Shown here: in pieces, positions 3,622 to 29,042 of the stretch
How positions within the stretch are numbered: the stretch's first letter is position 1
How the letters are laid out: each line of letters opens with the position of its first letter
NCBI GenBank assembly: GCA_946622645.1
Contig: CAMOQF010000002.1
Coordinates: 190-64,189 of the forward strand
Length of the DNA: 64,000 nucleotides
From: an uncultured Blautia sp.
GTDB lineage: Bacteria > Bacillota > Clostridia > Lachnospirales > Lachnospiraceae
Reading direction: 5' to 3'
Program-made: the position numbers and the translations under genes
The notes under the pieces: model-generated
Database searches by the model: none
What the model saw: the letters and a program-made list of their open reading frames with translations, nothing else
Told to the model about the DNA's origin: nothing

Positions 3622-3668
3622 CCGGGTGCAATCGATACAAAGAGACTATGAAAGGTGGTTGAAAAGCC

Positions 3669-4358
3669 ATGGGAGAAGAAAATAAAGAAAAACTGGAAAA
3701 CGAATCTGACCTGCACGCGGAAGAGGGTTCCGCGGCAGAAGAGATCACCGAGGAGATCGTAGAAGACCTTCCCGATCCGGAGGAACAGGCGCCGGACACT
3801 GAAGAACCGGAAGAGTCCGAAGAGGAGACGGCTTCCGAAGCATCGGAGGAAGCTTCCCCGCTGGATACACAGAACCCCGGCGAAGAAAAGAAAAAGACTT
3901 CCTTCTTCGGCAGGAAAAAGAAAGAAGCGGACAAAGCCCAGGCGCAGATCGACGAGCTGACCGACCGCCTGAAAAGAAACCTGGCGGAATTCGACAATTT
4001 CCGTAAACGGACGGAAAAAGAAAAGTCGAGCATGTACATGATCGGCGCGCGGGATATCGTCGAAAAGATGCTTCCCGTGGTGGACAGCTTTGAAAGAGGG
4101 CTTGCCCAGGCGCAGGAGGGAGACGCTTTCGCGGACGGCATGAAGATGATCTACAAGCAGCTTCTGACAGCGCTGGAGGAAGCAGGCCTGACCCCCATCG
4201 ACGCGGTGGGAAAAGAGTTCGACCCCAACCTGCACAACGCCGTGATGCATGTGGAGGATGAATCCTTCGGAGAAAACATCGTCGCGGAAGAGCTGCAGAA
4301 AGGATATATGTTCAAAGACACTGTGGTACGCCACAGCATGGTAAAGGTGGCAAACTGA
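3669..4358 (+). CDS. grpE: Nucleotide exchange factor GrpE
   Basis: AEFDNFRKRT, FDPNLHNAV, QKGY..RHSMVKVAN; lies between hrcA and dnaK. Confidence 0.97.
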   Translation: MGEENKEKLENESDLHAEEGSAAEEITEEIVEDLPDPEEQAPDTEEPEESEEETASEASEEASPLDTQNPGEEKKKTSFFGRKKKEADKAQAQIDELTDRLKRNLAEFDNFRKRTEKEKSSMYMIGARDIVEKMLPVVDSFERGLAQAQEGDAFADGMKMIYKQLLTALEEAGLTPIDAVGKEFDPNLHNAVMHVEDESFGENIVAEELQKGYMFKDTVVRHSMVKVAN

Positions 4359-4368
4359 GCGCCCGTGA

Positions 4369-6321
<1,953 letters not shown>

Positions 6322-6445
6322 TTTTCATTCAGAATATGATATTATAATCCCATACCCGTCCTGGAGATCTTCTCCGGGGCGGGCAAAACTATGATTAGGA
6401 CCGTTGCAGACGGAGCCTTGGAAGAATGATCAGAGGATACTTAAA

Positions 6446-7609
6446 ATGGCCGATAAAAGAGACTACTACGAGGTGCTGGGTGTAGACAGAAATGCCGATG
6501 AAGCGGCGCTGAAAAGCGCGTACCGCAAACTGGCGAAGAAATACCATCCGGACGTCAATCCCGGCGACAAGGAAGCGGAAGCTAAATTCAAAGAAGCCAC
6601 CGAAGCCTACGGCGTTCTTTCCGATCCGGAAAAACGCCGCCAGTATGACCAGTTCGGGCACGCCGCTTTTGAAAACGGCGGCGGCGCGGGCGGCTTTGGG
6701 TTTGATTTTTCCGGCGCGGATTTCAGCGATATATTCGGAGATCTGTTCGGGGGCATGTTCGGCGGCGGAAGGAGCCGTTCCGGCAGGAACAACGGGCCGC
6801 AGCGGGGCGCAAGCCTGCGGGCGCGGATCAATATCACCTTTGAAGAGGCGGTGTTCGGCTGCGAGAAGGAGCTGGAGATCTCTCTCAAGGATGAGTGCAC
6901 GACCTGCGGCGGGACCGGCGCAAAGCCCGGGACGTCCCCGGTCAAATGTACCCGCTGTAAAGGGGAAGGCCGGATCGTCTATTCGCAGCAGTCTCTGTTT
7001 GGCATGATGCAGAACGTGCAGACCTGCCCGGACTGCCAGGGAAAAGGCACCGTCATCAAAGATAAATGTACCAGCTGTAAGGGAACCGGTTATACTTCCT
7101 CCTGGAAAAAGATCCAGGTCTCGGTGCCGGCCGGCATCGACGACGGACAGAGCATCCGGATCCGCGAGAAGGGCGAACCCGGTCTGAACGGCGGCCCCAG
7201 AGGAGATCTGCTGGTGGAAGTGCGCGTGGCGAGACATCCCATCTTCCAGCGCCAGGATATGAACCTGTTCTCCACCGCTCCGATCACCTTTGCGCAGGCT
7301 GCTTTGGGCGGACCCATCCGCATCAGCACCATCGACGGTGAGATCGAATACAAGATCAAGGCCGGAACACAGACCGACACCCGCATCCGTCTGGAAGGCA
7401 AGGGCGTACCTTCCCTCCGGAACAAGAACGTGCGCGGGGATCACTATGTCACGCTGGTCGTGCAGGTGCCGACCCACCTGAGCGCGGAGGCAAAAGAAGC
7501 ACTGGAGCGTTTCGACGCGGCCTGCGGAAACCGTCCGGCTTCCGGGGAACCCACGGAGAAAAAGAAAAAAAGCTTCATGGATAAACTGAAGGAGACTTTT
7601 GAAGACTGA
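6446..7609 (+). CDS. dnaJ: Chaperone DnaJ
   Basis: J domain with HPD, G/F-rich region, four CxxCxGxG repeats; start placed at [10 protein letters not shown]. Confidence 0.99.
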
Positions 7610-15169: not shown

Positions 15170-17161
15170 TTGAGCAACGGCAATATAAATCACAGTAAAA
15201 ATACAGGAAAAACCCGGAATAAGCCGGTCAGAAACAATAAGAATAAAAACACATTTCTGAAAGGGTCTTCCCGAAAAACGGAAGCCGCAGATAAAAAGCC
15301 ATACAAAAAGCCGGAGTCACCGGCCAAAGCGCCGGTCAGAAAACCGGAGGCCAGAAAAACGGAGGTCAGAAAACCGGAGGTCAGAAAACCGGAGACCAGA
15401 AAACCGGAAGTCAGAAAACCGGAAGTCAGAAAACCGGAAGTCAGAAAACCGGCGCCCGCGACGTTTGTCAAAACCCCGGTGCGGTCCGCTTCCAAAAAGA
15501 GCAGAAAACAGGCTTCCCGCCTGAAGATCATCCCGCTTGGCGGTCTGGAACAGATCGGCATGAACATCACCGCCTTCGAGTACGAAGACAGCATCGTGGT
15601 CGTGGACTGCGGCCTGTCCTTCCCGGAGGACGACATGCTGGGCATCGACCTGGTGATCCCGGACGTGACCTACCTGAAAGAAAACATCCACAAAGTCAAG
15701 GGCTTTGTGATCACCCACGGACATGAGGACCACATCGGCGCGCTTCCCTATGTGCTGAAGGAAGTCAACGTCCCCATCTATTCCACCAAGCTGACCCTGG
15801 GCCTCATCACCAACAAGCTGCGTGAGCATAACATGGTCAAGACCACCAAAATGAAGGAGGTCCGCCATGGCCAGGTAATCAACCTGGGCGAGTTTGCCAT
15901 CGAATTCATCAAGACCAACCACAGTATCCAGGACGCTTCGGCCCTGGCCATCTATTCGCCGGTGGGCATCGTGGTCCACACGGGCGACTTTAAGGTGGAC
16001 TACACCCCGGTTTTCGGCGATGCCATCGATCTGCAGCGCCTTGCCGAGATCGGCAAAAAGGGCGTGCTTGCCCTGATGTGCGACAGCACCAACGCCGAAA
16101 GGCCCGGTTTTACCATGTCGGAACGGACCGTCGGCCATGTCTTTGACAATCTTTTCAACGAAAACCGGAATTCCCGGATCATCATCGCGACCTTCGCTTC
16201 CAACGTGGACCGTGTGCAGCAGATCATCAACACGGCTTACCGTTACGGGCGCAAGGTGGCGGTGGAAGGCCGCAGCATGGTCAACATCATCTCCGTCGCT
16301 TCGGAGCTCGGCTATCTGCGCGTGCCTGACCAGACGCTGATCGAGATCGACCAGGTCAAGAATTATCCCGACGACCAGGTGGTGCTGATCACCACCGGCA
16401 GCCAGGGCGAGTCCATGGCCGCGCTTTCACGCATGGCGGCCAGCATCCATAAAAAGATCACCATCAAGCCGAATGACACCATCATCTTCAGCTCCAACCC
16501 CATCCCCGGGAACGAAAAAGCCGTTTCCAAGGTGATCAACGAGCTGTCCATGAAGGGCGCCAAGGTCATCTTCCAGGATGCCCATGTATCGGGCCATGCC
16601 TGCCAGGAGGAGATCAAGCTCATCTATTCTCTGGTACGCCCCCGCTATGCGATTCCCGTGCACGGCGAGTACCGTCATCTGACAGCCCAGGCGCACATCG
16701 CGGAGGATCTTGGCTATGCAAAGGAGAACATCTTTATCCTTTCCTCCGGCAATATCCTGGAGCTGGATGAAAACGGCGCGGAGGTGACAGGCAGCGTGCA
16801 GACCGGAGCCATCTATGTGGACGGGCTGGGCGTCGGCGACGTGGGGAACGTGGTGCTGAGAGACCGGCAGAGACTGGCCGAAGACGGCATCATCATCGTG
16901 GTCATGACGCTGCAGCGCCACAGCAACGTTGTGATGTCCGGACCGGACATTGTCTCCCGCGGCTTTGTCTATGTTAAGGAATCAGAGGATCTGATGGAAC
17001 ATGCCCGTGAGGCGGTCCGGACAGCCCTGGATTCCTGCAGCGATAGAAACATCAATGACTGGAGCCGGATCAAGACGGAGGTGAAGGACGCTCTTTCCAG
17101 CTATGTCTGGAAGACGACCAAAAGAAGCCCCATGATCCTGCCCATCATCATGGAGGCCTGA
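15170..17161 (+). CDS. rnj: Ribonuclease J with a long basic N-terminal extension
   Basis: IIPLGGLEQIGMN, THGHEDHIG, HTGDFK, HVSGHA, PVHGE. Probable TTG start at 15170 after GGAGGTG; ATG 15155 is an alternative. Confidence 0.96.
   Translation: MSNGNINHSKNTGKTRNKPVRNNKNKNTFLKGSSRKTEAADKKPYKKPESPAKAPVRKPEARKTEVRKPEVRKPETRKPEVRKPEVRKPEVRKPAPATFVKTPVRSASKKSRKQASRLKIIPLGGLEQIGMNITAFEYEDSIVVVDCGLSFPEDDMLGIDLVIPDVTYLKENIHKVKGFVITHGHEDHIGALPYVLKEVNVPIYSTKLTLGLITNKLREHNMVKTTKMKEVRHGQVINLGEFAIEFIKTNHSIQDASALAIYSPVGIVVHTGDFKVDYTPVFGDAIDLQRLAEIGKKGVLALMCDSTNAERPGFTMSERTVGHVFDNLFNENRNSRIIIATFASNVDRVQQIINTAYRYGRKVAVEGRSMVNIISVASELGYLRVPDQTLIEIDQVKNYPDDQVVLITTGSQGESMAALSRMAASIHKKITIKPNDTIIFSSNPIPGNEKAVSKVINELSMKGAKVIFQDAHVSGHACQEEIKLIYSLVRPRYAIPVHGEYRHLTAQAHIAEDLGYAKENIFILSSGNILELDENGAEVTGSVQTGAIYVDGLGVGDVGNVVLRDRQRLAEDGIIIVVMTLQRHSNVVMSGPDIVSRGFVYVKESEDLMEHAREAVRTALDSCSDRNINDWSRIKTEVKDALSSYVWKTTKRSPMILPIIMEA
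15338..15457 (+). repeat. 15-bp tandem repeat (about 8 copies) encoding RKPEV-like pentapeptides
   Basis: Units AGAAAACCGGA(A/G)GTC and variants, read directly at 15338, 15353, 15368, 15383, 15398, 15413, 15428 and 15443. Confidence 0.95.
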
Positions 17162-17162
17162 C

Positions 17163-17504
17163 ATGGAACAGATCGACAGATTGACAGAAGAGCTTCTGCA
17201 GGCGATCCTGGACAGCAGCATCTACCGGGAATACGCCGAGCAGGAGGAAAGACTTTCCTCCGATCCCGAGCTTCTTGTCAGAGTCAACCGCTTTCGGGCG
17301 GACAATTTTCTGATGCAGCAGGAAAATCCCCAGGATCTTTTTGCCGTGTCGGAGATCATCGCTGAAAGATCATCGGAGCTTCGCAAGATCCCGGAGGCCA
17401 ACGCCTATCTGGAGGCTGAACTGGCCATGAACAAGCTGATGCAGAGGATCTGCTGCAGGCTGTTTGAAGGGATCGACTATAATGTTCCGGAGGAAATCAA
17501 TTAA
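17163..17504 (+). CDS. YlbF/YmcA (RicAF-like) family regulator
   Basis: 113-aa helical protein; AYLEAELAMNKLMQRI pattern; follows rnj. Confidence 0.75.
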   Translation: MEQIDRLTEELLQAILDSSIYREYAEQEERLSSDPELLVRVNRFRADNFLMQQENPQDLFAVSEIIAERSSELRKIPEANAYLEAELAMNKLMQRICCRLFEGIDYNVPEEIN

Positions 17505-17528
17505 AACAGCTTCGGGAAAGGAGCCGGC

Positions 17529-17933
17529 ATGAGCAACGTAAAGGATAAAGCCGGAAAGGTCGGCCTGGCGCTGGCGGGCGGCGTGTTTCACATCGCATTG
17601 TACGCCTGCGTGCTGGTGCTTCTGTTCTGGCTTGGAAAGACAGCCTATTATTTCGGATATGACGTGTTTAACCAGCAGGCCATGAGCCCGGGCGCGGGAC
17701 AGGAGGTCACCGTCGTCGTCCAGGAGGGGAGTTCCCCCTACAAGATCGGAAAGACCCTGGAAAGCAAAGGCCTGATCCGCAGCGCCTATGTGTTTGTGGT
17801 GCAGGAGCTGCTTTCCAATTATCACGGCAAGCTGCAGGCGGGCACGTATCTTCTGAGCACCGCTTATACGCCCAACCGCATCATGGGCATCATGGCCGGC
17901 GATAAAGAACAGGAAGGGGCCCAGAGCCCGTGA
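17529..17933 (+). CDS. Short MltG/YceG-like membrane protein (N-terminal part only)
   Basis: One TM segment, then VVQEGSSPYKIGKTLESKGLI and LQAGTYLLS, typical of the MltG N-terminal domain; no catalytic domain; located at the usual mltG position before trmR/U32. Confidence 0.7.
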   Translation: MSNVKDKAGKVGLALAGGVFHIALYACVLVLLFWLGKTAYYFGYDVFNQQAMSPGAGQEVTVVVQEGSSPYKIGKTLESKGLIRSAYVFVVQELLSNYHGKLQAGTYLLSTAYTPNRIMGIMAGDKEQEGAQSP

Positions 17934-18571
17934 TCGTCAATGAAAGAATGAAAGATTTTCTGGACTCTTTTGATACAGGAAACACGGCTTTCCTGGAGGA
18001 GCTTGAAAAGCGCTCCCTCCGTGAAAACGTGCCGATCATCAGAAGAGACACCCAGAGACTTCTGAAAACACTCATGGTCCTTGCAGGACCGATGAAGATC
18101 CTGGAGGTGGGGACAGCCGTAGGCTTCTCCACACTTCTTATGTGTGAGGCTGCGCCGGAGGGCGCAAGGATCACCACCATCGAAAATGATCCGTCCCGCT
18201 ATGAAAAGGCCAGAGAGAACGTCTCCGCCGCCGGCCGGGAGGAGCAGATCGATCTTCTGTTCGGCGACGCCGAAGAGATCCTTGCTTCCTTGTCGGGAGA
18301 ATGGGACATGATCTTTCTGGACGCTGCCAAGGCGCAGTATATCCGCTGGCTTCCGGTCCTGAAGGGACTTCTCAGGCCCGGAGGAATGCTGGTGTCCGAC
18401 AACGTGCTGCAGGAAGGCGACCTGACGGAGTCTCATTTCCTGGTGCAGCGGCGCGACCGTACGATCTACAAAAGGATGCGTGAATTTCTGTACGCCGTCA
18501 CACATGATCCGTCGCTTTCTACCGTCATCCTGCCGGTTGGCGACGGGGTGGCCCTGAGTGTAAAACAATAG
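17930..18571 (+). CDS. trmR: O-methyltransferase (TrmR/YrrM-like)
   Basis: ILEVGTAVGFS, IFLDAAK, GGMLVSDNVL, GDGVAL; next to a U32 gene. Confidence 0.8.
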   Translation: MIVNERMKDFLDSFDTGNTAFLEELEKRSLRENVPIIRRDTQRLLKTLMVLAGPMKILEVGTAVGFSTLLMCEAAPEGARITTIENDPSRYEKARENVSAAGREEQIDLLFGDAEEILASLSGEWDMIFLDAAKAQYIRWLPVLKGLLRPGGMLVSDNVLQEGDLTESHFLVQRRDRTIYKRMREFLYAVTHDPSLSTVILPVGDGVALSVKQ

Positions 18572-18638
18572 ATGTCACGCCGCAGGCAGCAGGGCTTTGC
18601 CCGGTCTCTGCCCGCGGGAACAAAGGGAGGACTCTGCC

Positions 18639-19889
18639 ATGAAAAAACCGGAGCTTCTGGTGCCGGCGGGCAGTCTGGAGGTCCTGAAGATCGCCGTGCT
18701 CTACGGAGCGGACGCCGTCTATATCGGCGGGGACGCCTACGGCCTGCGGGCCAAGGCCCGCAACTTTTCTCCCGCCGAGATGAGAGAAGGGATCCGTTTC
18801 GCCCACGAGCATGGCGCAAAAGTCCATGTGACCGTCAACATCCTGGCCCACAACCGGGACCTGGAGGGAGTGGCGGCCTATCTGCAGGAGCTGAAAACGC
18901 TTGCTCCTGACGCGCTGATCATCGCGGATCCGGGCGTCTTTACGCTGGCAAGGCAGATCTGCCCGGAGATCGAGATCCATATCAGCACCCAGGCAAATAA
19001 TACCAATTATGAGACCTGCCTGTTCTGGCACAGCCTCGGAGCCAGAAGGATCGTGATGGCCCGGGAGCTTACGCTCTCCGAGATCCGGGAGATCCGTGAA
19101 AAAGTTCCGGATTCCCTGCAGATCGAAGCCTTTATCCACGGCGCCATGTGCATCTCTTATTCCGGCAGATGTCTTCTCAGCAATTATCTGGCCGGACGGG
19201 ACGCCAACCAGGGAGAATGCACCCACCCCTGCCGCTGGAAATATGCGGTGGTGGAGGAGACGCGCCCCGGTGAATACATGCCCGTGGAGGAGAACGAGCG
19301 CGGCACCTTTATCTTTAATTCCAAGGATCTCTGCATGGTCGACCACATGGAGGATATCCTTTCGGCCGGGATCGACAGCCTGAAGATCGAAGGCCGCATG
19401 AAGACGGCCCTCTACGTCGCGACCGTAGCGCGCACTTACCGCAAGGCGATCGACGAGGCGGCGCAGGATCCTTCGCTCTATCACGCGCACATGGACTGGT
19501 ATCTGGAACAGATCGCCTGCTGCACCAACCGGCAGTTTACCACCGGCTTCTTCTACGGAAAACCGGACCGGGAAAGCCAGATCTATGACAGCAGCACTTA
19601 TATCAAAGACTATGTATATCTGGGGTATGTGGAGGAGGTCCGTCCGGACGGGCTCGTCCGCATCACCCAGCGGAATAAATTCAGTACGGGAGAGACCATC
19701 GAGATCATGAAGCCGGACGGACGCAACGTTGCTGTCCGGGTGCGGTCGATCCATGATCCGGACGGCCGGGAGATGGAGAGCGCTCCCCACGCGCAGCAGA
19801 CCCTGTATGTGGATCTGGGAGCAGACGTCTGTATGTATGATATCCTCCGCCGGAATGACGGCGGCATGGAGGAAGGAAAACAAAGTTGA
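18639..19889 (+). CDS. U32 family protein (TrhP-like tRNA hydroxylation)
   Basis: KPELLVPAG, GADAVYIG, HGAMCISYSGRCLLS, CTHPCRW, LKIEGRMK. Confidence 0.9.
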   Translation: MKKPELLVPAGSLEVLKIAVLYGADAVYIGGDAYGLRAKARNFSPAEMREGIRFAHEHGAKVHVTVNILAHNRDLEGVAAYLQELKTLAPDALIIADPGVFTLARQICPEIEIHISTQANNTNYETCLFWHSLGARRIVMARELTLSEIREIREKVPDSLQIEAFIHGAMCISYSGRCLLSNYLAGRDANQGECTHPCRWKYAVVEETRPGEYMPVEENERGTFIFNSKDLCMVDHMEDILSAGIDSLKIEGRMKTALYVATVARTYRKAIDEAAQDPSLYHAHMDWYLEQIACCTNRQFTTGFFYGKPDRESQIYDSSTYIKDYVYLGYVEEVRPDGLVRITQRNKFSTGETIEIMKPDGRNVAVRVRSIHDPDGREMESAPHAQQTLYVDLGADVCMYDILRRNDGGMEEGKQS

Positions 19890-22800
19890 AAAGAACGATC
19901 GAAGAACTTTGCAGCGGAAAACATGAATATGACGTTCCTGCGCTGATGTTTTCACAGGAAAAGATCGAGGTGACGCTTCCTCCGGGACAGACGACCCAGC
20001 GGGAGCTCTACATCGGTACGGAATCGGACCACCGCATCAGAGGCTATGTGACTTCTTCGGACCGCCGCCTGGTGCCCGGGCTTGAAAGCTTTTCCGGGAC
20101 GACCATCCGCCTTCCCTTCGGGGTCGACGCGGTAGGCCTGCCGAACGGGGAGGTCCGGGAGGAGTGGCTCTGCTTTACCACCAATCTGGGCGAATACCGG
20201 ATCCCGGTCACCATCCGTACGGAAGCGGAGCAGATGAAGACCGCCGGAGGCGAGATCCGTTCTCTGGACGAGTTTGCCGCGCTGGCATCCCGGAATTTCC
20301 GTGAAGCCTACCGGATGTTTACGGAACCGTCGTTCTATGACCTGATCCATGCCCAGGATGAAAAGACCCGGTCCTTGTACGCCGGTCTTTCCGCCCAGCC
20401 CGTCACATACCAGAACCTGGAAGAGTTCCTGGTGGCCTCCGGCAGGAAGGACAAGGTGGAGGTCCAGCTGGGAGAATACCAGAAGGAGATCTTCGAGATC
20501 CAGGAATCCACCCGGGAAAGCCTTCAGATCACCCGGAGCGGCTGGGGGCATCTGCGGATCGACGCGGTGGTGCGCGGGAGCTTTATCGAGCTCGAAAAAC
20601 GCGTCATCACGGACGAGGATTTTATCGGAAGCACCTACAATCTTTCCTACGTGATCCGGAGAGACAGGCTGGGAGAGGGCAACCAGTTCGGCGAGATCCG
20701 CATCATCACGCCTTACCAGGAGCTGGTATGCCAAGTGACGGCTTCCGCCACCATCCGTTCCAACCTGATGCTCCGTATGGAGGAAAAAAAGAGACGGCTC
20801 AACCTGATGCAGGATTATCTGGACTATCGATGCCAGATGGTGGATACGGCCGCGTGGGCGGCCCAGTCCCATTATGAGCTGAACCGTCTGAAGGACGCCG
20901 GGTTTGATTATCCGGAGTATAAAATGTATGAGGTCTACGTGCTGTGGACCGAGGGAAAAAAGGCGGAGGCCTACGATATCCTGCGGGAATATCACAAGGA
21001 GCCCTTCATCAAGGACGACCCGGAGCTCGCAGGGCTCTATCTGTATCTGGCCTTCGAGGCAGGCATCTACAAAGACTCTGAATCGGTGCTCCGAAGGCTG
21101 ACAGGCCTCTATGTGCAGAATGAAAAGAGCTTTCTGCTGCAGGAGATCCTGCTGCACCTGGATCCGGAGCTGATCCGGGTCCCCTCCAAAGCGCTGTATC
21201 ACCTGGAGGAGATCTTTTCGAAGGGCTGCAAGAATCCTCTGATGTATCTGGAAGCATGGGTGCGGATCTGCATGGACGAGAGTCTTCTGCACAGGATCAC
21301 CCCCTTCTGGATCCAGGTGTTCCTGTTTGCCGGGCGGAGAGGGCTCCTGACGGAAGAGCTGACCATGCGCTTCACCTATCTGTCCGGGTATGAAAAAGAA
21401 TTTTCCGAGTGTCTGTACCGCGCCCTGGTCTACGGGTACGAGGCATATCCGTCGGACGAATCCCTGGAGGCCATCTGCCGCTATATCATGACCGGGAACC
21501 CCAGGAAGAAGGAGTATTTCCGCTGGTTCTCCCTCGCGGTGGAGCGGGACATCCGTCTGACAAGAGTGTTCGAGTATTATATGGAGACTGTGGACACTTC
21601 CTACCACAAAGAGCTGCCCAAGTCTCTTCTGATGTATTTCAACTACAACAACAGCAATCTGGGCGATACCAGAAAGGCATATATCTACGCGGATGTCATT
21701 GCGGGCAAGGATCAGGATCCCAAGACCTACAACAGCTACCGCCAGACCATCACGAGCTTTGCCGCCCAGAAGATCCGCGAGGGCAGGATCAGCGAGGACT
21801 ACGCCATTCTCTATCAGGAGTATCTGCGTAAACCGGAAAACCAGGAGGAGGCCCGTATCCTCTCCGGCATCCTGTTCGCGAACCGTCTGTACTGCGACAA
21901 CCCGCGCGTGCGGTGCGTGATCGTCCGTCACAGCCAGCTCACAAAGGAGGAACTGTATCCCTGCGTGCACGGCGTGGCATATCCGCGGATCTACACGGAG
22001 GACGCGGCTGTCCTGTTCCAGGACGACAAACAGCGCCGGTACAGCGCCACCGTGGATTACAATCTGAAAAAACTGATGGATGACCGCGATCTGGTCCCCG
22101 CGATCATCGAAAAAAGATACACCGAGCCGGGACTCCTTTTAAACTACTGCGAATTACACGAGATCACGTCGGAAAATCTGCCGGTCTTCCAGCAGGTGGT
22201 CCAGTCGGATTCCTTTTCCGAGGACTACCAGATGGAGACCCGCCGGAAGATCCTCCGCTGGTACCGTGAGAACATGAAAGGCGCCGAACTCGACATGCTG
22301 CTGAAGCGGCTGGATCACAGGGAATACGCCCTGGTGGACCGCAAAGCCCTTCTGGAGGTCCTGATCGACCGCGGCATGTTCCGCCAGGCTTATCAGATCG
22401 TGGAGGAGTTCGGCTCCGAGGACGTGAGTCCCTCCGATCTGCTGAAGCTGGTGAGCCGCATGATCATCCGCCTGGAGCTTAAGGAGGACGACGAGCTGAC
22501 GGCTCTTTCCTCCAGGATCTTCCGGGGCGGGCTGTACGACGAGATGATCCTCCGGTATCTCATGCTGTACCGGACGGGCCCCATCGATGAGCTCTTTGAG
22601 ATCCGCCGCTGCGCGGTGGGATTCGATCTGGACACCTATGCGTTCGACGAGAGGATCCTGGGTCTTCTGATGCTGACCACCGACTTCCGGAAGGAAGGCG
22701 AAAAGATCCTGGAAAGCTATGTGAGATCCTCCGGCCGCGAGCAGGTCATCAGCGCCTATCTGACCATGCTCTCTTACGGAGCATTTGTAAAAGACTACAG

Positions 22801-23416
22801 TGTCAGTCCCTTTGTGCGGGAATGCCTGATGACGGTGTATAAAAACGGCTGGGAAGTCGACCAGGTCTGCCATCTTGCCCTTTTCAAGGCCCTCTCCCGG
22901 GAAAAAGATCCGGACGGTCTGTACAAAGATCTCAAGGCGGATCTTCTGAAAGAGTGCATGGACCAGGGCATGCTTTTCGGCTTTTACAAAAAACTGCCGC
23001 AGGACCTTCTGAGCCCCTGGCAGCTGGATGACAAGACCTTTGTGGAATGCCATGCGTCGCCGGGAGCCGTCGTGACTTTGTTTTATCAGCTGGATTCCGG
23101 CATCGGAGAGCCGGACGGCTTTGCTTCGCTGCCGATGACCCAGGTCTATGAAGGGATCTTTGTACGGACCTTCACCCTGTTTTACGGCGAGACGCTGCGT
23201 TATTATTTCGTGACAGAGGAAAAAGGAAAAACGCGGAAGACGCCGGAGCGTGTCCTGACCATGAACCGTGTGGAAGGCAATCCTTCCTCCCGGTATCAGC
23301 TCATCAACCGCATGCTGTCGTCCCGCAAGCTCGGCAAGAAGGACGAGACCCAGAGAGGCCTTAAGGATTACCTCCGTCAGGAGCAGTATGTAAACGAAAT
23401 GTTCGACCTGAAATGA
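19886..23416 (+). CDS. Large hypothetical protein (DUF5717-like), 1176 aa
   Basis: Long ORF with host-like codon usage; TTG start overlaps the U32 stop, after GGAGG. Beta-rich termini and helical middle. Family name is recalled from Lachnospiraceae annotations, not searched. Confidence 0.75.
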   Translation: MKRTIEELCSGKHEYDVPALMFSQEKIEVTLPPGQTTQRELYIGTESDHRIRGYVTSSDRRLVPGLESFSGTTIRLPFGVDAVGLPNGEVREEWLCFTTNLGEYRIPVTIRTEAEQMKTAGGEIRSLDEFAALASRNFREAYRMFTEPSFYDLIHAQDEKTRSLYAGLSAQPVTYQNLEEFLVASGRKDKVEVQLGEYQKEIFEIQESTRESLQITRSGWGHLRIDAVVRGSFIELEKRVITDEDFIGSTYNLSYVIRRDRLGEGNQFGEIRIITPYQELVCQVTASATIRSNLMLRMEEKKRRLNLMQDYLDYRCQMVDTAAWAAQSHYELNRLKDAGFDYPEYKMYEVYVLWTEGKKAEAYDILREYHKEPFIKDDPELAGLYLYLAFEAGIYKDSESVLRRLTGLYVQNEKSFLLQEILLHLDPELIRVPSKALYHLEEIFSKGCKNPLMYLEAWVRICMDESLLHRITPFWIQVFLFAGRRGLLTEELTMRFTYLSGYEKEFSECLYRALVYGYEAYPSDESLEAICRYIMTGNPRKKEYFRWFSLAVERDIRLTRVFEYYMETVDTSYHKELPKSLLMYFNYNNSNLGDTRKAYIYADVIAGKDQDPKTYNSYRQTITSFAAQKIREGRISEDYAILYQEYLRKPENQEEARILSGILFANRLYCDNPRVRCVIVRHSQLTKEELYPCVHGVAYPRIYTEDAAVLFQDDKQRRYSATVDYNLKKLMDDRDLVPAIIEKRYTEPGLLLNYCELHEITSENLPVFQQVVQSDSFSEDYQMETRRKILRWYRENMKGAELDMLLKRLDHREYALVDRKALLEVLIDRGMFRQAYQIVEEFGSEDVSPSDLLKLVSRMIIRLELKEDDELTALSSRIFRGGLYDEMILRYLMLYRTGPIDELFEIRRCAVGFDLDTYAFDERILGLLMLTTDFRKEGEKILESYVRSSGREQVISAYLTMLSYGAFVKDYSVSPFVRECLMTVYKNGWEVDQVCHLALFKALSREKDPDGLYKDLKADLLKECMDQGMLFGFYKKLPQDLLSPWQLDDKTFVECHASPGAVVTLFYQLDSGIGEPDGFASLPMTQVYEGIFVRTFTLFYGETLRYYFVTEEKGKTRKTPERVLTMNRVEGNPSSRYQLINRMLSSRKLGKKDETQRGLKDYLRQEQYVNEMFDLK

Positions 23417-23432
23417 CCGAAAGGAACCAACG

Positions 23433-24695
23433 ATGAATGAGATCAGGGATCTGATCCTCGGGATCGATTTTGGAAAAGAAAAGACACAGCTCTGCTACTA
23501 TGACCGGAGAGCAGGCGAACCCAGATCTCTCTCCATGAAAGTGGGCGCCAACGTGTACGAAGCTCCCACCAGGCTCTGCTATCTGAGCGACCAGGAGGAT
23601 TATACCGTCGGGCTGGAGGCAGACTATTTTGCCCGCGAGAGAAACGGGGAACTGATAGAAGGCCTCTACGATCTGAGCGGCACCGAGGACACCGTCCAGA
23701 TCGGGGGGAAGACCGTGACGCCGGTCGATCTTCTGACCCATTTTCTGAAGGGAATGCTGCGCTATGTGGGCGTGGTGGACGTGATCCGCAACACGAAGTG
23801 TCTTTGCATCACCTCCCCCGTGCTGACGGAGATCCGTGTGAAAAACCTGAAGGAAGCCTGCAGAAATGCAGGACTGTCCGATGAGCAGTTCATGCTCCTG
23901 GACCATGGAGAAAGCTTTTACTACTATGTGATGACCCAGAAAAAAGAGGTCGTGAGCCGGAGCGTCGCCTGGTATCTGTTTGACCAGGACCACGTCACCT
24001 TCCGGAAGATGACGCTCAACACGGCGAAAAAGCCTTTCCTGGTCCGGCTGGAGGATCCTGTCGAGACGGATCTTCCTCGTTCCGCCAAAGAGAGAGACTC
24101 GGCCTTCTGCGAGTTTATCCAGAAGACGATCGGGACGGAGCTTTTCTCCAGCGTACAGATCAGCGGGGAAGGATTCGGGACCGAATGGGCCCTGCAGTCC
24201 GTCAAGATCCTCTGCTTCCAGAAGCGGAAGGTCTATTACGGCAACAATCTTCACGCCGGCGGGGCATGCGCCTGCGCCAAGGAGAAAACGGAGGACAGGA
24301 GCCTGCGTTCCTACCGCTTTTTGAGCGAGTCCCTCGTGAAGAACGATGTGGGCATGGATATGCTGGTGATGGGCTCCCGGGCTTTTGTGCCGCTGATCAC
24401 CAACGGCGGAAACTGGTACGAGACCCACAGTCACTGCGAGCTGATCCTGGACGGAATGGAAGATCTGGTGTTTGTGGTCAGCTCCATGGGCGATACCGAA
24501 AAGAAACGCGTCGTCATGCGGCTGCCCGGTCTTCCCAAAAGACCGCGGAAGACCACCAGGCTTTCGCTGGACCTGTCCTACGTGTCTCCTGAAAAATGCG
24601 AGATCACCGTGAAGGATCTGGGCTTCGGCGAAATGTTCCCCAAAAGCGGGAAAGTCTGGAAAGAGACCGTTACCTGGGAGGAGGGCAGTCTATGA
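23433..24695 (+). CDS. Divergent Hsp70/DnaK-fold protein (DUF5716-like)
   Basis: ILGIDFG, CITSP, KEACRNAGL and RLPGLP...TVKDLGFG align in order with motifs of the DnaK in this window. Confidence 0.7.
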   Translation: MNEIRDLILGIDFGKEKTQLCYYDRRAGEPRSLSMKVGANVYEAPTRLCYLSDQEDYTVGLEADYFARERNGELIEGLYDLSGTEDTVQIGGKTVTPVDLLTHFLKGMLRYVGVVDVIRNTKCLCITSPVLTEIRVKNLKEACRNAGLSDEQFMLLDHGESFYYYVMTQKKEVVSRSVAWYLFDQDHVTFRKMTLNTAKKPFLVRLEDPVETDLPRSAKERDSAFCEFIQKTIGTELFSSVQISGEGFGTEWALQSVKILCFQKRKVYYGNNLHAGGACACAKEKTEDRSLRSYRFLSESLVKNDVGMDMLVMGSRAFVPLITNGGNWYETHSHCELILDGMEDLVFVVSSMGDTEKKRVVMRLPGLPKRPRKTTRLSLDLSYVSPEKCEITVKDLGFGEMFPKSGKVWKETVTWEEGSL

Positions 24696-25495
24696 GCGCT
24701 TATATCCTGTGTCAGACCAGACGGACGGAGACTCCCTTCTTTCTGGAAAACATCAGCACGAATATCTATTCGCTGGAAGAACTTTGCTATTTCCTGTATC
24801 ACAATCTGCCCCTGGTGGACGAGACCGTGATCCGGGAAGACCTCTGTAAGTGGATCGAGACGGAACTCCAGCTTCCCGGGCTGGCCGAACGGCTGAGACC
24901 TCATCTGGGACGGTTTTCCGACCTGCAGGATTTTCTGTATCCGATCTTCAAGGAGATCAATTATCTCAACTATGACGAGCTTCGTTCCCTGAGCTCCCGG
25001 CTTTCCCAGCTGGAATCCCAGACGTTCTATGAACGGCAGAAGCTGAAAGGCGATGCGATGGTCCGGAACGGGATGACCGTCAACGCGATCCGCGCCTATC
25101 AGAAGCTCCTGTCCTACGCGGAATTCAATCTTCCGCCCGAAGAGATGGTGGAGGAGGAAAAACGGTTCGCCTCCGCGGTCCATCACAACCTGGGATGCGC
25201 CTTCGCGCGCCTGTTCCAGATGGACAAGGCGGTGGAGTGCTTCTGGACCAGCTACGAGCTCGTTCCGGATCAGAAAGAGCTGGTGACTTATCTGCTTGCC
25301 TACAAAAATGCCAGGACGCCTCTGGAATACGAGAGCAGGCTCGCGGAACTGTCGATCGACGAATCGGTGAAGCGTCAGGTGGAAGAAAAGCTGGATCATT
25401 TTGCCCGCCTCCCGGAGACGCCTGTCTACGGACGCAGCACGGACACCATCCTGGAGAGGCTCACCAGAGAATACCACAGAAGCACCGGTTCGTGA
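24692..25495 (+). CDS. Hypothetical TPR-containing protein
   Basis: ATG 24692 overlaps the upstream stop (ATGA) after GGAGG; TPR-like HHNLGCAFARLFQMDKAVECF and KGDAMVRNG..NAIRAY. Confidence 0.75.
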   Translation: MSAYILCQTRRTETPFFLENISTNIYSLEELCYFLYHNLPLVDETVIREDLCKWIETELQLPGLAERLRPHLGRFSDLQDFLYPIFKEINYLNYDELRSLSSRLSQLESQTFYERQKLKGDAMVRNGMTVNAIRAYQKLLSYAEFNLPPEEMVEEEKRFASAVHHNLGCAFARLFQMDKAVECFWTSYELVPDQKELVTYLLAYKNARTPLEYESRLAELSIDESVKRQVEEKLDHFARLPETPVYGRSTDTILERLTREYHRSTGS

Positions 25496-25511
25496 CGGAA
25501 CGGTTTTTTTC
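25484..25511 (+). terminator. Possible rho-independent terminator after the three-gene module
   Basis: Imperfect ACCGGTTCG/CGGAACGGT stem followed by a T run. Confidence 0.45.
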
Positions 25512-25585
25512 TTGCTTTTGAATATAGCATGTTATATAATCTCACTTGTGTGTAAAAATTGGTTTTGAAAGGACTGGTACAGGAG

Positions 25586-26293
25586 ATGGAGAAAAGAGAG
25601 CAGCTCTATGAAGGAAAAGCCAAAAAGGTTTTTGCCACGGATGACCCGGATGTCGTGATCGTCAGCTACAAGGACGACGCCACCGCCTTCAACGGTGAAA
25701 AGAAGGGCACCATCCAGGGAAAGGGCGTCATCAACAACCGGATGACCAATCTGGTGTTTCAGAAATTTGCCGAGGCCGGCATCCCGACTCATTTTATCGA
25801 AGAACTGAACGACCGGGAGACCGCCGTGAAAAAAGTGGACATCGTTCCCCTGGAAGTCATCGTGCGGAACGTGGCGGCCGGCAGCTTTTCAAAACGCATG
25901 GGCGTGCCGGAAGGCACCGCGCTCCTCTGCCCCATCCTGGAGTTCAGCTATAAAAACGACGACCTGGGCGATCCCTTCATCAACGATGACTATGCCCTGG
26001 CTCTCGGTCTTGCCACCAGGGAAGAGCTGGATACCATCCGCAGATACACCCTGTCCGTCAACGAGATCATGAAGGAATACTTCCTCCAGGCAGGCCTTAA
26101 GCTGATCGACTTCAAGATCGAATTCGGCCGTTATCACGGTGAGATCCTCCTGGCGGATGAAGTGTCCCCGGACACCTGCCGTCTCTGGGACGTCAACACC
26201 AATGAAAAGCTTGACAAGGACCGCTTCCGCAGGGACCTTGGAAATGTAGAGGAGGCCTACAACGAGGTCTTCCATCGTCTCGGACTGGACTGA
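25586..26293 (+). CDS. purC: SAICAR synthetase
   Basis: [46 protein letters not shown]. Confidence 0.98.
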
Positions 26294-26305
26294 CGGAGAA
26301 CATCT

Positions 26306-27739
26306 ATGAGCACGGACAAGTATACAAGCCCCCTGTCGGAAAGGTATGCCGGCAAAGAGATGCAGTATATCTTTTCACAGGACATGAAATTCCGCACCTG
26401 GCGTAAACTCTGGATCGCTCTGGCGGAGACGGAGAAAGAGCTCGGCCTTCCCATCACCGACGAGCAGATCGAAGAGCTGAAAGCCCATGCGGAAGACATC
26501 AACTACGAAGTCGCCACGGAACGGGAAAAACTGGTCCGCCACGATGTGATGTCCCACGTGTACGCCTACGGGGTGCAGTGCCCCAAGGCCAAGGGCATCA
26601 TCCATCTGGGCGCCACCTCCTGTTATGTTGGCGATAATACGGATATGATCATCATGCGCGAAGCGCTCCGGCTGGTGAGAAAAAAACTGGTCAATGTGAT
26701 CGAACGGCTCTCTGTTTTTGCTGAAAAGTACAAGAGCCTTCCGACCCTCGCTTTCACGCATTTCCAGCCCGCGCAGCCCACCACCGTGGGGAAGAGGGCG
26801 ACTCTCTGGATCCAGGATCTTCTGATGGATCTGGAGGATCTGGAGTATGTCCTCTCGACCCTGAAGCTGCTTGGGTCGAAGGGTACCACGGGCACGCAGG
26901 CGAGTTTTCTGGAGCTGTTCAACGGCGATACCGAAAAGATCGACCGGATCGATCCCATGATCGCGGAGAAGATGGGCTTTTCGGCCTGCTACCCGGTCTC
27001 GGGACAGACTTATTCGCGCAAGGTGGACACCCGGGTCGTGCAGGTGCTGTCCGGAATCGCGCAGAGCGCGCACAAGATGTCCAACGACATCCGGCTTCTG
27101 CAGCATCTGAAAGAGGTGGAAGAGCCCTTTGAGAAAAACCAGATCGGGTCTTCCGCCATGGCCTATAAACGGAATCCGATGCGGAGCGAGCGGATCGCGT
27201 CGCTCTCCCGTTATGTGATGATCGATGCGCTGAACCCGGCCGTCACGGCGGCGACCCAGTGGTTTGAGCGCACGCTGGATGATTCCGCAAACAAGCGCCT
27301 TTCCATCCCGGAAGGGTTCCTCGCGGTGGACGGCATCCTGGATCTCTGCCTCAATGTGGCGGACGGTCTGGTGGTCTATCCCAAGGTCATCGAAAAGCAT
27401 CTGAGAAGCGAGCTTCCCTTCATGGCGACCGAGAACATCATGATGGACGCCGTAAAAGCCGGCGGGGACCGGCAGGAGCTGCACGAACGGATCCGCACCC
27501 TCTCCATGGAAGCGGGCCGGCATGTAAAAGAAGAAGGAAAAGAAAACGATCTGCTGGAGCTGATCGCACAGGATCCCGCGTTTCATGTTTCGCTGGAGGA
27601 GCTTTCCGCGGCGATGGATCCCGCGCGCTATACCGGCCGTTCCGCCGAGCAGACGGAGCATTTCCTCACCAGGGTCGTACGCCCGGTGCTGGAATCGCGT
27701 TCCGGCCTTCTGGGACTGACGGCGGAGATCAAGGTGTGA
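26306..27739 (+). CDS. purB: Adenylosuccinate lyase
   Basis: [15 protein letters not shown], signature [10 protein letters not shown]. Confidence 0.97.
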
Positions 27740-27767
27740 CAGATTACGTTTTTCGAAAGGATATAAA

Positions 27768-29042
27768 ATGGTTAAAGCGGTTGTAGGAGCAAACTGGGGA
27801 GACGAAGGCAAGGGAAAGATCACGGATATGCTCGCGCAGAATTCGGACATCATCATCCGGTTCCAGGGCGGCGCCAACGCCGGGCATACCATCGTGAACA
27901 ACTATGGCAAATTTGCCCTTCACACCCTGCCTTCCGGCGTGTTTTATGATCATACCACCAGCATCATCGGAAACGGCGTGGCCCTGAACATCCCGGTTTT
28001 CTTTAAGGAATTGAACGAACTGATCGAGAGAGGCGTGCCCGCCCCGAAGATCCTGATCTCGGACCGGGCGCAGATCGTGATGCCTTATCACATCCTGCTG
28101 GATCAGTACGAAGAGGAAAGACTGGGCGGCAAGTCCTTTGGATCTACCAAATCCGGCATCGCCCCCTTCTATTCGGATAAATACGCGAAGGTCGGTTTTC
28201 AGGTGAGCGAGCTGTTTTTTGAAGACAGTCTGCGCGAGAAGCTTGAGCGCGTCCTGGAGACCAAAAACGTGCTGATGGAGCATCTGTATCACAAACCGCT
28301 CCTGTCGGCGGATGAGATCTTTGACGAGCTGATGCGCTACCGCGAAATGGTGAAACCTTACGTGTGCGACGTTTCCGCTTTTCTGTATGAAGCCCTGAAG
28401 GCAGGAAAGGAGATCCTCCTGGAAGGCCAGCTGGGATCCCTCAAGGACCCCGACCACGGCATTTATCCCATGGTGACTTCATCCTCCACCCTGGCCGGCT
28501 TCGGGGCTGTGGGCGCGGGTATCCCGCCGTATGAGATCCGCCAGATCGTGACGGTCGTCAAAGCGTATTCAAGCGCTGTGGGCGCGGGCGCTTTTGTCTC
28601 CGAGATCTTTGGAGAGGAAGCGGACGAGCTCAGAAGACGCGGCGGAGACGGCGGAGAGTACGGCGCGACAACGGGCCGCCCCAGAAGAATGGGCTGGTTC
28701 GACTGCGTCGCGACACGGTACGGCTGCCGTATCCAGGGAACCACGGACGTGGCCTTCACCGTGCTGGATGTTCTGGGCTATCTGGATGAGATCCCGGTCT
28801 GCACAGGATACGAGATCGACGGGAAAGTCACAACGGACTTTCCGGCCACCGGACTTCTTTACAAGGCAAAACCGGTCTATGAAGTCCTGCCCGGGTGGAA
28901 GACGGACATCCGCGGGATCCGCAGATACGAGGATCTTCCGGAGAACTGCCGTAAATATGTGGAGTTTGCAGAAGAACATATCGGCTTCCCCATCACGATG
29001 ATCAGCAACGGTCCGGGAAGAAACGATATCATCTATCGGTGA
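27768..29042 (+). CDS. purA: Adenylosuccinate synthetase
   Basis: GANWGDEGKGK, GGANAGHT, EYGATTGRPRR. Confidence 0.98.
   Translation: MVKAVVGANWGDEGKGKITDMLAQNSDIIIRFQGGANAGHTIVNNYGKFALHTLPSGVFYDHTTSIIGNGVALNIPVFFKELNELIERGVPAPKILISDRAQIVMPYHILLDQYEEERLGGKSFGSTKSGIAPFYSDKYAKVGFQVSELFFEDSLREKLERVLETKNVLMEHLYHKPLLSADEIFDELMRYREMVKPYVCDVSAFLYEALKAGKEILLEGQLGSLKDPDHGIYPMVTSSSTLAGFGAVGAGIPPYEIRQIVTVVKAYSSAVGAGAFVSEIFGEEADELRRRGGDGGEYGATTGRPRRMGWFDCVATRYGCRIQGTTDVAFTVLDVLGYLDEIPVCTGYEIDGKVTTDFPATGLLYKAKPVYEVLPGWKTDIRGIRRYEDLPENCRKYVEFAEEHIGFPITMISNGPGRNDIIYR

Follow-up and report, generated by a model that had tools for sequence, protein, structure and literature searches.

The window analysed here, a stretch of 64,000 nucleotides from an uncultured Blautia sp. 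(contig CAMOQF010000002.1; positions are those of the window and on its + strand unless another locus or strand is named), carries at 23433–24695 a gene for a 420-aa protein of the Pfam family DUF5716_C (PF18980), hereafter DUF5716. This protein branched off from the Hsp70/DnaK family long ago and has diverged strongly from it. We put at about 0.6 the probability that it no longer cycles and acts within a stable complex, as a subunit of the clamp or scaffold type. A preliminary description, made from the sequence alone, had seen in it a minimal, lidless and catalytically dead Hsp70 with a peptide-binding beta-sandwich. Its observations hold, and its interpretation is supported as regards fold, domain losses and motif decay, dead ATPase and peptide binding being predicted on good grounds. 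It has to be extended, however, as the protein is no isolated minimal Hsp70 but the core, derived from Hsp70, of a module of conserved genes.

The protein was compared with the DnaK encoded in the same window (open reading frame (ORF) 4396–6321; Pfam HSP70, E 7.5e-247, 820 bits). The nine motif pairs that the preliminary description had drawn between the two proteins are all present in both, and in strictly colinear order. Their offsets (DUF5716 minus DnaK position) run +4, +9, +10, +9 and +13, then −67, −68, −68 and −68, a jump that means a single net loss of 80 residues in DUF5716, located after the phosphate-2 motif and before the adenosine motif, beyond which the register stays constant through the rest of the nucleotide-binding domain (NBD), across the boundary with the substrate-binding domain (SBD) and into SBD-beta. 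Pairwise BLASTP between the two proteins is marginal (E 0.021 over residues 8–174 and E 0.071 over residues 363–400), searches of the PDB sequences with phmmer from a single sequence or with a narrow, 36-sequence profile give no Hsp70 match, and hhalign of this narrow profile against DnaK reaches 25% probability. The Hsp70 sequence signal emerged only with a diverse profile (A2), made from 119 representatives of the DUF5716 family at no more than 50% identity. When A2 is aligned to the window DnaK by hhalign, the probability is 94.2% (E 1.1e-7, 178 columns, residues 7–194), and a near-global hhalign run places residues 5–418 colinear with DnaK 1–490. When all PDB chain sequences are searched by hmmsearch with A2, DnaK is the sole family below E 1 (best E 1.3e-5), matched in two colinear stretches, residues 8–153 to 4–142 in the NBD and 354–400 to 415–461 in the SBD; the sole other match is YlbL, at E 1. 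As the diverse-profile, hhalign and colinear-motif results agree with regard to DnaK, the resemblance of DUF5716 to Hsp70 is real homology and not chance. The divergence is nevertheless such that the 23433–24695 product does not match Pfam HSP70 at E ≤ 0.1, and none of 100 family representatives does so even at E ≤ 1. Because this threshold is failed, DUF5716 is a derived relative that lies outside Hsp70 by the curated Pfam definition, and not a member of it.

The AlphaFold2 model of the protein, built with 36 homologues, is of high confidence (mean predicted local distance difference test score (pLDDT) 87.8, predicted template-modelling score (pTM) 0.85). It contains both elements on which the preliminary description had staked its reading, an actin-like NBD and, behind it in the same chain, an eight-stranded SBD-like beta-sandwich, and the order of its secondary-structure elements matches that of Hsp70. 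Foldseek retrieves 339 PDB matches at E ≤ 0.001, the best 50 of which are all Hsp70s, namely DnaK, Hsc70, BiP, mortalin, Ssb, Ssz1 and Sse1 (E 1e-19 to 1e-14, 500–565 columns, 11–15% identity). Against a library of viral structures, the top matches are the closterovirus Hsp70h and the Hsp70s of giant viruses.

The NBD-like part, delimited by the model, hhalign and the motif offsets, covers residues 1–290 (23433–24302) and comprises, besides the C-terminal NBD helix, subdomains IA, IB and IIA. In the model, it starts with the phosphate-1 hairpin (strands 7–13 and 17–24), which is followed by the IB insert, the "ITSP" strand (121–128), a helix equivalent to the catalytic-Glu helix of DnaK (158–167), the phosphate-2 hairpin (177–184 and 187–196) and two more IIA strands; a helix (218–232), the adenosine-motif strand (238–246) and the last NBD helix (273–288) complete it. 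This last helix carries NLHAGGACACA, in which G277 is invariant and A278 invariant or nearly so in the family. The missing block of 80 residues is, as judged by size and position in the model, NBD subdomain IIB. Its junction is placed approximately at residues 214–217 (24072–24083), between strand 210–213 and helix 218–232, from the offset jump and the model, the exact point being a prediction. DUF5716 is therefore not a protein with the four NBD subdomains, IIB included. The preliminary description had much of NBD lobe II missing: one IIB-sized block is indeed gone, but the IIA strands, a G-x-G remnant of the adenosine motif and the C-terminal NBD helix are kept.

The NBD-like part is joined to the beta-sandwich by a YRFL linker (residues 294–297; 24312–24323), the counterpart of VLLL in DnaK, which forms a beta-strand in the model (294–296) and is conserved as hydrophobic in the family, with the pattern [YF]-[VLI]-[YF]-L. 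The SBD-beta-like sandwich of eight strands extends over residues 304–414 (24342–24674), as supported by BLASTP, the model and the profile alignments. Its two most Hsp70-like segments are MRLPGLPKRPRKTTRL and VKDLGFGE (AKDLGTGK in DnaK), and its best-conserved positions lie in loop 2,3 (A324-G325-x-N327-W328-Y329-E330), in the loop 5,6 region (L364, P368, R370, P371, T375 and R376) and in loop 7,8 (D395-x-G397-F398-G399-E400), to which W409 is added. The chain ends 6 residues after SBD strand 8, at a point aligned to about residue 490 of the 628 of DnaK, which runs on for about 140 residues; the whole helical lid is missing, as had been claimed. In docked Hsp70s, the loop 2,3 end of the SBD sandwich contacts the NBD. 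The Foldseek root-mean-square deviation (rmsd) of the model is 10–12 Å to SBD-docked DnaK structures (7kru, 7krv and 4b9q) versus 16–22 Å to undocked, ADP-type ones (2kho, 2v7y and 4ani). The strand-like hydrophobic linker, the high pTM, the lower rmsd to docked states and the conserved, Trp-containing loop 2,3 together suggest that the SBD of DUF5716 is not mobile but stays docked, the two domains forming one rigid body.

The catalytic site was compared in the hhalign register, using the numbering of E. coli DnaK and column counts over the 119 representatives. Of the six positions that serve DnaK in catalysis or in contacts with Mg and phosphate, five are replaced in this protein. The one retained is D8, which is D12 here (Asp in 89 and Glu in 28 representatives). 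T11–T12 become K15–E16, at which the family has mostly Asp, Asn or Glu (D/N/E at position 15, D/E/K at position 16). K70 becomes Y79 (hydrophobic in the family), E171 becomes L156 (Gln in 64, Ile in 20 and Leu in 14), D194 becomes L182 (Asp in 54, Glu in 30) and D201 becomes T189 (variable), while the stretch G196–G198/T199 reads D-Q-D-H, with H187 for T199, and is variable in the family, no clade having a run of Gly. The degeneration of both phosphate loops, which had been pointed out before, is hence borne out by the register, with GKE for GTT and FDQDH for LGGGT. In the phosphate-1 loop (GIDFGKEKT, residues 10–18; 23460–23486), the Asp is kept and Thr-Thr is replaced by Lys-Glu; in the phosphate-2 loop (WYLFDQDHVT, residues 180–189; 23970–23999), the Asp, the Gly-Gly-Gly-Thr and the second Asp are all replaced. 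Neither intact phosphate loops nor the catalytic set of Hsp70 are thus found. What is left of the adenosine motif is QISGEGF (residues 242–248; 24156–24176; LLVGGST in DnaK), with G245 invariant and G247 and F248 nearly so.

These replacements strongly suggest that DUF5716 is catalytically dead. In Hsp70, subdomain IIB closes over the adenine and docks GrpE. With one catalytic position of six left, degenerate loops and IIB gone, established Hsp70 enzymology makes an ATP-driven cycle very unlikely in this protein. No DnaJ or GrpE domain is found by Pfam in the partner proteins described below or in the neighbours across loci (DUF5717, the TPR protein and the fourth gene included), so that the module has no dedicated J-domain co-chaperone or exchange factor; dnaJ and grpE occur in the window only once, in the canonical operon at 2581–7609.

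DUF5716 does not stand alone. Immediately 5' of it lies the gene for DUF5717 (1176 aa; 19886–23416; Pfam DUF5717_N 5.4e-248 and DUF5717 3.2e-91), whose stop (23414–23416) is separated from the DUF5716 start by a 16-nt gap. Immediately 3' lies a gene for a 267-aa protein with tetratricopeptide repeats (TPR; 24692–25495; on record as a called protein), whose ATG overlaps the DUF5716 stop. This translational-coupling junction (24676–24695) comprises the ribosome-binding site GGGAGGAGGG and an ATGA overlap, made of ATG 24692–24694 and TGA 24693–24695. The order DUF5717-DUF5716-TPR is found in 82 of 83 Blautia-type loci, the exception being a 2.7-kb contig that ends early, and DUF5717 is directly 5' of DUF5716 in all 83 as well as in four distant Lachnospiraceae loci (L084–L087), where the module order is the same, with the TPR part either separate or fused. 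The flanks of the module vary, with infA and dinB in Blautia versus a U32 peptidase gene and purC in the window. Elsewhere among the Lachnospiraceae, a single protein of 670–790 aa combines DUF5716 with the TPR part. Such fusions are found in several clusters at 50% identity and dozens at 90%, and DUF5717 is still directly 5' of the fused genes (L084–L086). The synteny in 82 of 83 loci despite differing flanks, the ATGA overlap, the recurrent fusions and the persistence of DUF5717 5' of them argue for an obligate partnership.

The window TPR protein aligns to residues 431–683 of one such fusion (P0147; E 7e-33), and in the fusions its conserved N-terminal domain begins only about 15 residues after SBD strand 8. 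The all-helical TPR module occupies in them the position of the Hsp70 lid. This is a positional replacement and not descent, since the homology of the TPR protein to the lid tested negative: as a diverged Hsp70 lid, it reaches a probability of only 0.3% by hhalign against DnaK. The words minimal and lidless of the preliminary description are accordingly right for the chain, which has no lid, but they overlook the translationally coupled gene for a helical TPR protein and the fixed module of three, often four, genes.

The three products were characterised further. The AlphaFold2 model of DUF5717 (pLDDT 80, pTM 0.49) predicts two immunoglobulin (Ig)-like, ASH/PapD-like beta-sandwiches (20–112 and 193–286) with a small helical insert between them, a TPR-like alpha-solenoid (293–660), a small beta domain (665–729), a second solenoid (736–1026) and, in the C-terminal part, a beta-sandwich (1031–1125) followed by a helical hairpin. 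Its Foldseek matches are only TPR/HAT scaffolds (Ctr9, IFT-A subunits, SKI3 and Naa15) and ASH/PapD-like Ig arrays (ciliary central-pair proteins and the CEP192 SPD-2 domain), with no enzyme fold among them, and a DUF5717 profile finds no match in the PDB sequences. No J-domain is detected in it, either as a Pfam DnaJ match or as an HPD motif in the helical insert (127–184). In the TPR protein, a conserved domain of about 110 aa at the N-terminus (C7, P15, E29-E30, C32-Y33) precedes about three TPR motifs (residues ~113–200). Its Pfam TPR_1 and TPR_2 matches are both under the gathering cutoff, NCBIfam gives for its ORF only a sub-threshold match to MamA (E 0.056), and its profile finds consensus TPRs strongly and the TPR domains of Hop/Sti1, FKBP51 and Tah1 weakly (E 0.002–0.02). 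Its C-terminus (25472–25495) is a conserved tail, EYHRSTGS, with Y261 invariant and G266 nearly so. In the fusions this tail reads [EQ]-Y-R-x-A-A-G, and it may be a docking peptide. By eye, neither a signal peptide nor a membrane helix is present in the three module proteins. The three-gene module includes no recognisable catalyst and has the appearance of an assembly that serves as scaffold or adaptor in the cytoplasm.

In the four distant loci, a fourth gene follows the TPR part, including in the unfused one (L087). It lies at 10156–11352 in L084, 10265–11500 in L085, 10256–11440 in L086 and 11002–12180 in L087; the copies are homologous (E 2e-20) and have no Pfam match, and they encode a protein of about 395 aa with long coiled coils flanking a two-helix membrane hairpin. 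A divergent gene for a 432-aa PG_binding_1 protein is observed just 5' of DUF5717 in L085 (2837–4135, −) and L086 (2920–4218, −), and also near DUF5717 in L084 (1–586). It has no homologue in the window or the 83 loci, and its presence in L085 and L086 is probably lineage synteny.

The most likely mechanism is the following. DUF5716 would have no ATP-driven cycle of opening and closing, nor any ATPase activity, as its degenerate motifs suggest, and would serve as a fixed clamp or scaffold subunit in a stable cytoplasmic complex. The TPR protein, from the next and coupled gene, would be its partner at the position of the Hsp70 lid and DUF5717, with its Ig-like domains and TPR-like solenoids, its other partner, a physical complex of the three being what their gene linkage leads us to infer. 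In many other Lachnospiraceae, the two-TM coiled-coil protein of the fourth gene could tether this complex to the membrane. The beta-sandwich would probably hold an extended peptide, either that of a dedicated client or a partner chain serving as a built-in pseudo-substrate, as Zuo1 does for yeast Ssz1, peptide clamping being here proposed by analogy.

Several points weigh against this picture of a non-cycling clamp in a stable complex. An acidic residue is kept at the D8 position in 117 of 119 representatives and at the D194 position in 84 of 119, and E160, S161, G245 and G247 are invariant or nearly so. Because acidic residues are conserved in much of the family, many of its members, though the D194 position is Leu here, may retain some binding of metal or nucleotide, and a minimal actin/ASKHA (acetate and sugar kinase, Hsp70, actin) fold is able to bind ATP without a Hsp70-type IIB lobe. 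The cleft loops L1,2 and L3,4 of the SBD are only moderately conserved in the family, and what pTM, rmsd and conservation say about the docking of the two domains and about the peptide cleft is suggestive only. The TPR module is, as seen above, no descendant of the lid. The fourth gene is not found in the window or in the 83 Blautia-type loci, so that it was lost or moved in the Blautia-type lineage. Finally, the contigs from a bovine-gut metatranscriptome that cover parts of all three genes are of low depth; they are weak evidence of expression and may reflect DNA carry-over.

The first of these points are those from which one rival explanation starts. DUF5716 could be a working, if unconventional, nucleotide-dependent chaperone, in which a reduced ASKHA site (Asp12, Glu160 and the G-x-G) binds ATP, another nucleotide or a metal and drives substrate capture, with the TPR protein as a lid in trans or a co-chaperone. 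Besides the acidic positions and the near-invariant E160, S161, G245 and G247, it can draw on the Gln found at the E171 position in 64 of 119 representatives, on the conserved hydrophobicity of the linker, which transmits allostery in Hsp70, and on the established fact that minimal actin-fold ATPases function without a IIB-type lobe. The equivalents of D194, E171, K70, T199 and D201 are, however, Leu, Leu, Tyr, His and Thr in this protein, the Thr-Thr site of phosphate-1 is Lys-Glu here and mostly acidic family-wide, the Gly-rich phosphate-2 loop is present in no clade, subdomain IIB is missing, and the module encodes neither a J-protein nor an exchange factor. We consider such an activity unlikely. 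Less probable still is that DUF5716 is a nucleic-acid- or ribosome-associated adaptor, the module being a system of defence or RNA surveillance. The Blautia module is directly 3' of the ribosomal-protein/infA cluster, and that of the window follows an O-methyltransferase/U32 pair that resembles the TrmR and U32-type tRNA-modification genes of B. subtilis. An adaptor role of this kind has been proposed for the CnuD proteins of the CoCoNuT defence systems, in which a Hsp70-like NBD and SBD likewise carry degenerate motifs and are linked to coiled coils and helical repeats (PMC11090510). Yet these neighbourhood hints are weak, as the flanks differ between genera, and neither a McrB-like GTPase nor a DUF2357, HEPN or other nuclease domain is present in the module or its neighbours. 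PADLOC has no model that matches any of the three module proteins (PADLOC 2.0 predates the CoCoNuTs), no DUF5716 homologue is found on plasmids, and the one "phage" record examined is a bacterial chromosomal contig. The housekeeping surroundings, the gene order, which is the same in every locus examined, and the sigma-A-type promoters are also unlike those of patchy defence islands. As for the idea that the Hsp70 likeness is superficial, with a generic actin-fold domain of the MreB/FtsA/PilM type, an unrelated beta-sandwich and motif matches due to chance, the marginal BLASTP values, the empty single-sequence and narrow-profile searches and the absence of any Pfam HSP70 match among 100 representatives would all fit it. 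It can hardly be reconciled with a diverse profile that matches DnaK alone below E 1, and does so in both domains, with the 94% reached by hhalign, with a register constant over four motifs that span the NBD/SBD boundary, or with two independent structure libraries in which the top matches are two-domain Hsp70s and not MreB, FtsA or actin, and we regard it as very improbable.

At its own locus, the DUF5716 gene has an ATG start preceded, 8 nt upstream, by AAAGGA (23420–23425), read as its ribosome-binding site. The match of its product to DUF5716_C (313.4 bits for a cutoff of 34.7, E 1.6e-93) covers residues 124–415, and the same model is matched by 100 of 100 family representatives; no Pfam model matches residues 1–123, and an NCBIfam scan finds nothing for DUF5716 or DUF5717. 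An ORF on the opposite strand (23361–24434) was considered and is unsupported as a gene, being a usual by-product of a coding region with 55% G+C. A search of 1.84 billion cluster representatives with the DUF5716 profile (E ≤ 1e-3) yields a family of 1569 clusters at 50% identity, and some clusters at 90% identity contain thousands of gut-metagenome sequences. The public names found for these proteins are "hypothetical", "uncharacterised" or "DUF" only, and the literature that could be searched contains no paper on DUF5716 or DUF5717. In the cluster of a Blautia DUF5716 (P0106; 5069 sequences; contigs up to 95 kb), many members are 264 aa long and not 415 aa, which may come from N-terminally truncated gene calls or from a real disruption of the NBD in a common strain. 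Four contigs (L008, L017, L075 and L086) are labelled Eggerthellaceae, Prevotella, Ruminococcus bicirculans or Muribaculum despite carrying a Lachnospiraceae module, most likely through errors in the binning of metagenome-assembled genomes.

The window is chromosomal DNA of a Lachnospiraceae bacterium from the ruminant gut. The nearest named genomes to it are those of Blautia, at no more than 70% protein identity, and its DNA is matched in sheep and bovine gut metagenomes. Its housekeeping genes include uvrB, hrcA-grpE-dnaK-dnaJ, prmA, the RNase J gene, the O-methyltransferase and U32 peptidase genes and purC. Since it carries the canonical hrcA-grpE-dnaK-dnaJ operon (2581–7609, as identified by Pfam), 16 kb 5' of the DUF5716 gene, the genome has a normal DnaK system besides the DUF5716 protein. 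The listed dnaK ORF begins at an upstream TTG, and its likely true start is a Met 13 codons in. The genes for the O-methyltransferase (Methyltransf_3) and the U32 peptidase lie directly 5' of the module (17930–19889), with which they look co-transcribed in this genome, as the TTG start codon of DUF5717 shares nucleotides with the U32 stop (19886–19889). On the 3' side, purC, purB and purA follow (25559–29042), the latter two as ORFs 3' of purC whose translations resemble PurB and PurA, and purF-like genes are present in relatives (13676–17467 in L084, 11635–16019 in L085); such genes are not linked to the module in Blautia. This pur linkage is probably ancestral synteny and not a functional link. 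The flanking genes vary between genera, and none is conserved enough to name a client.

Sigma-A-type promoters are found 5' of DUF5717 in four relatives (L001 and L084–L086), TG-extended in three of the four. That of L001, TTGCGC-17-TATAAT, comes after the infA terminator, that of L084 is TGTTATACT and that of both L085 and L086 is TTGCCA-17-TGTTACACT. A scan for promoters and terminators over 17000–26500 of the window shows nothing above shuffle expectation inside the module. A phage origin was considered, because the module matches five records from human faecal viromes named "UNVERIFIED: Bacteriophage sp.", and was rejected: in the one examined (MT835486.1, 1–19152, which is L087), it is flanked by MgsA, split ValRS and glycosyltransferase genes, as in a bacterial chromosome. 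The other four records are MT835719.1, MT835988.1, MT837634.1 and MT837190.1. Over the 64-kb window, no Rfam family reaches its gathering score, the + strand carries almost all of the long ORFs that have support, and the cumulative GC skew shows a nearly monotonic increase.

The module points to an undescribed machine of the Hsp70 type, probably without enzymatic activity, that is frequent among the Lachnospiraceae of the gut, Blautia included. A widespread family that keeps the body of Hsp70 without IIB, lid and catalytic loops would show that this fold has been reused in bacteria as a static binding module, in parallel to eukaryotic Ssz1. A bolder proposal, which we make tentatively and hold to be rather doubtful, is that DUF5716 represents a fourth class of prokaryotic Hsp70, nucleotide-independent and "frozen", which has a TPR module, from a separate gene or fused, for a lid and forms, with DUF5717 and mostly with a membrane anchor, a machine for the assembly or holding of a client in Lachnospiraceae. 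If true, a dedicated machine would exist in bacteria that are among the most abundant of the human and ruminant gut. Independently of such a class, the fixed pairing with the TPR protein, fusion at the lid position included, provides a concrete and testable hypothesis of a complex, and hence a foothold for the function of a module conserved in Blautia and relatives, with three genes here and four in other lineages.

When DUF5716 is set against known systems, DnaK/Hsp70 (PF00012) has the same fold and domain order (NBD with IA, IB and IIA, hydrophobic linker, eight-stranded SBD-beta), and the two have in common the motifs G-I-D-L/F-G and I-T-V/S-P, the G-x-G adenosine remnant, the G-A helix, L-x-G-[IL]-P-x-x-P-R and K-D-L-G-x-G. 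DUF5716 differs from it by the lack of IIB, of the SBD-alpha lid, of the phosphate-1 Thr-Thr and of the phosphate-2 Gly loop, by an identity of 12–14% in structural alignments, and by an operon without a J-protein or GrpE. Three types of prokaryotic Hsp70, DnaK, HscA and HscC, have been described, all ATP-driven and with conserved ATPase residues, HscA and HscC being specialised bacterial paralogues that have deletions relative to DnaK and do not depend on GrpE (2021 review, PMC8215388). Unlike DUF5716, which has none of these, HscA and HscC keep the residues for ATP binding and hydrolysis, all NBD subdomains, the lid and dedicated J-proteins. CnuD/CnuCD of Type III CoCoNuT, which we set beside DUF5716 by its published description only, is a degenerate bacterial Hsp70-like NBD/SBD joined to helical repeats, the one such case described so far (PMC11090510). 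Both proteins have such an NBD/SBD followed by helical repeats, HEAT-like in CnuD and TPR in the DUF5716 fusions, and both have links to coiled coils. The partners of a CoCoNuT, namely the NxD McrB-like GTPase CnuB, the McrC/DUF2357 protein CnuC and HEPN RNases or other nucleases, are nevertheless absent from the module and its flanks, and DUF5716 lies in a chromosomal, housekeeping-type operon.

The pairing of a Hsp70-type protein with a small protein of about three TPRs recalls the eukaryotic Hsp70/Hsp90-TPR pairs (Hop/Sti1, FKBP51, Tah1 and CHIP), although the matches of our TPR profile to Hop/Sti1, FKBP51 and Tah1 are no better than those to generic consensus TPRs. In eukaryotes the pairing relies on the C-terminal EEVD tail of Hsp70, which is absent in DUF5716, whereas here the conserved tail (EYHRSTGS) belongs to the TPR protein and the two genes can be fused. 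Ssz1, structures of which (6sr6, 5mb9 and 7x3k) are among the Foldseek matches of the DUF5716 model, binds ATP. It is lidless and unable to run the Hsp70 cycle, and its partner Zuo1 extends its SBD-beta and inserts a pseudo-substrate into it (PMC7083937). Ssz1/HSPA14, in the ribosome-associated complex (RAC), has a full, four-subdomain NBD and forms a heterodimer with a J-domain partner on the ribosome, whereas DUF5716 has neither such an NBD nor such a partner, its putative partners being a TPR protein and an Ig-solenoid protein, in a bacterium. Ssz1 may nonetheless be regarded as the closest functional precedent for DUF5716, by analogy only, the relationship seen being that of the Hsp70 superfamily.

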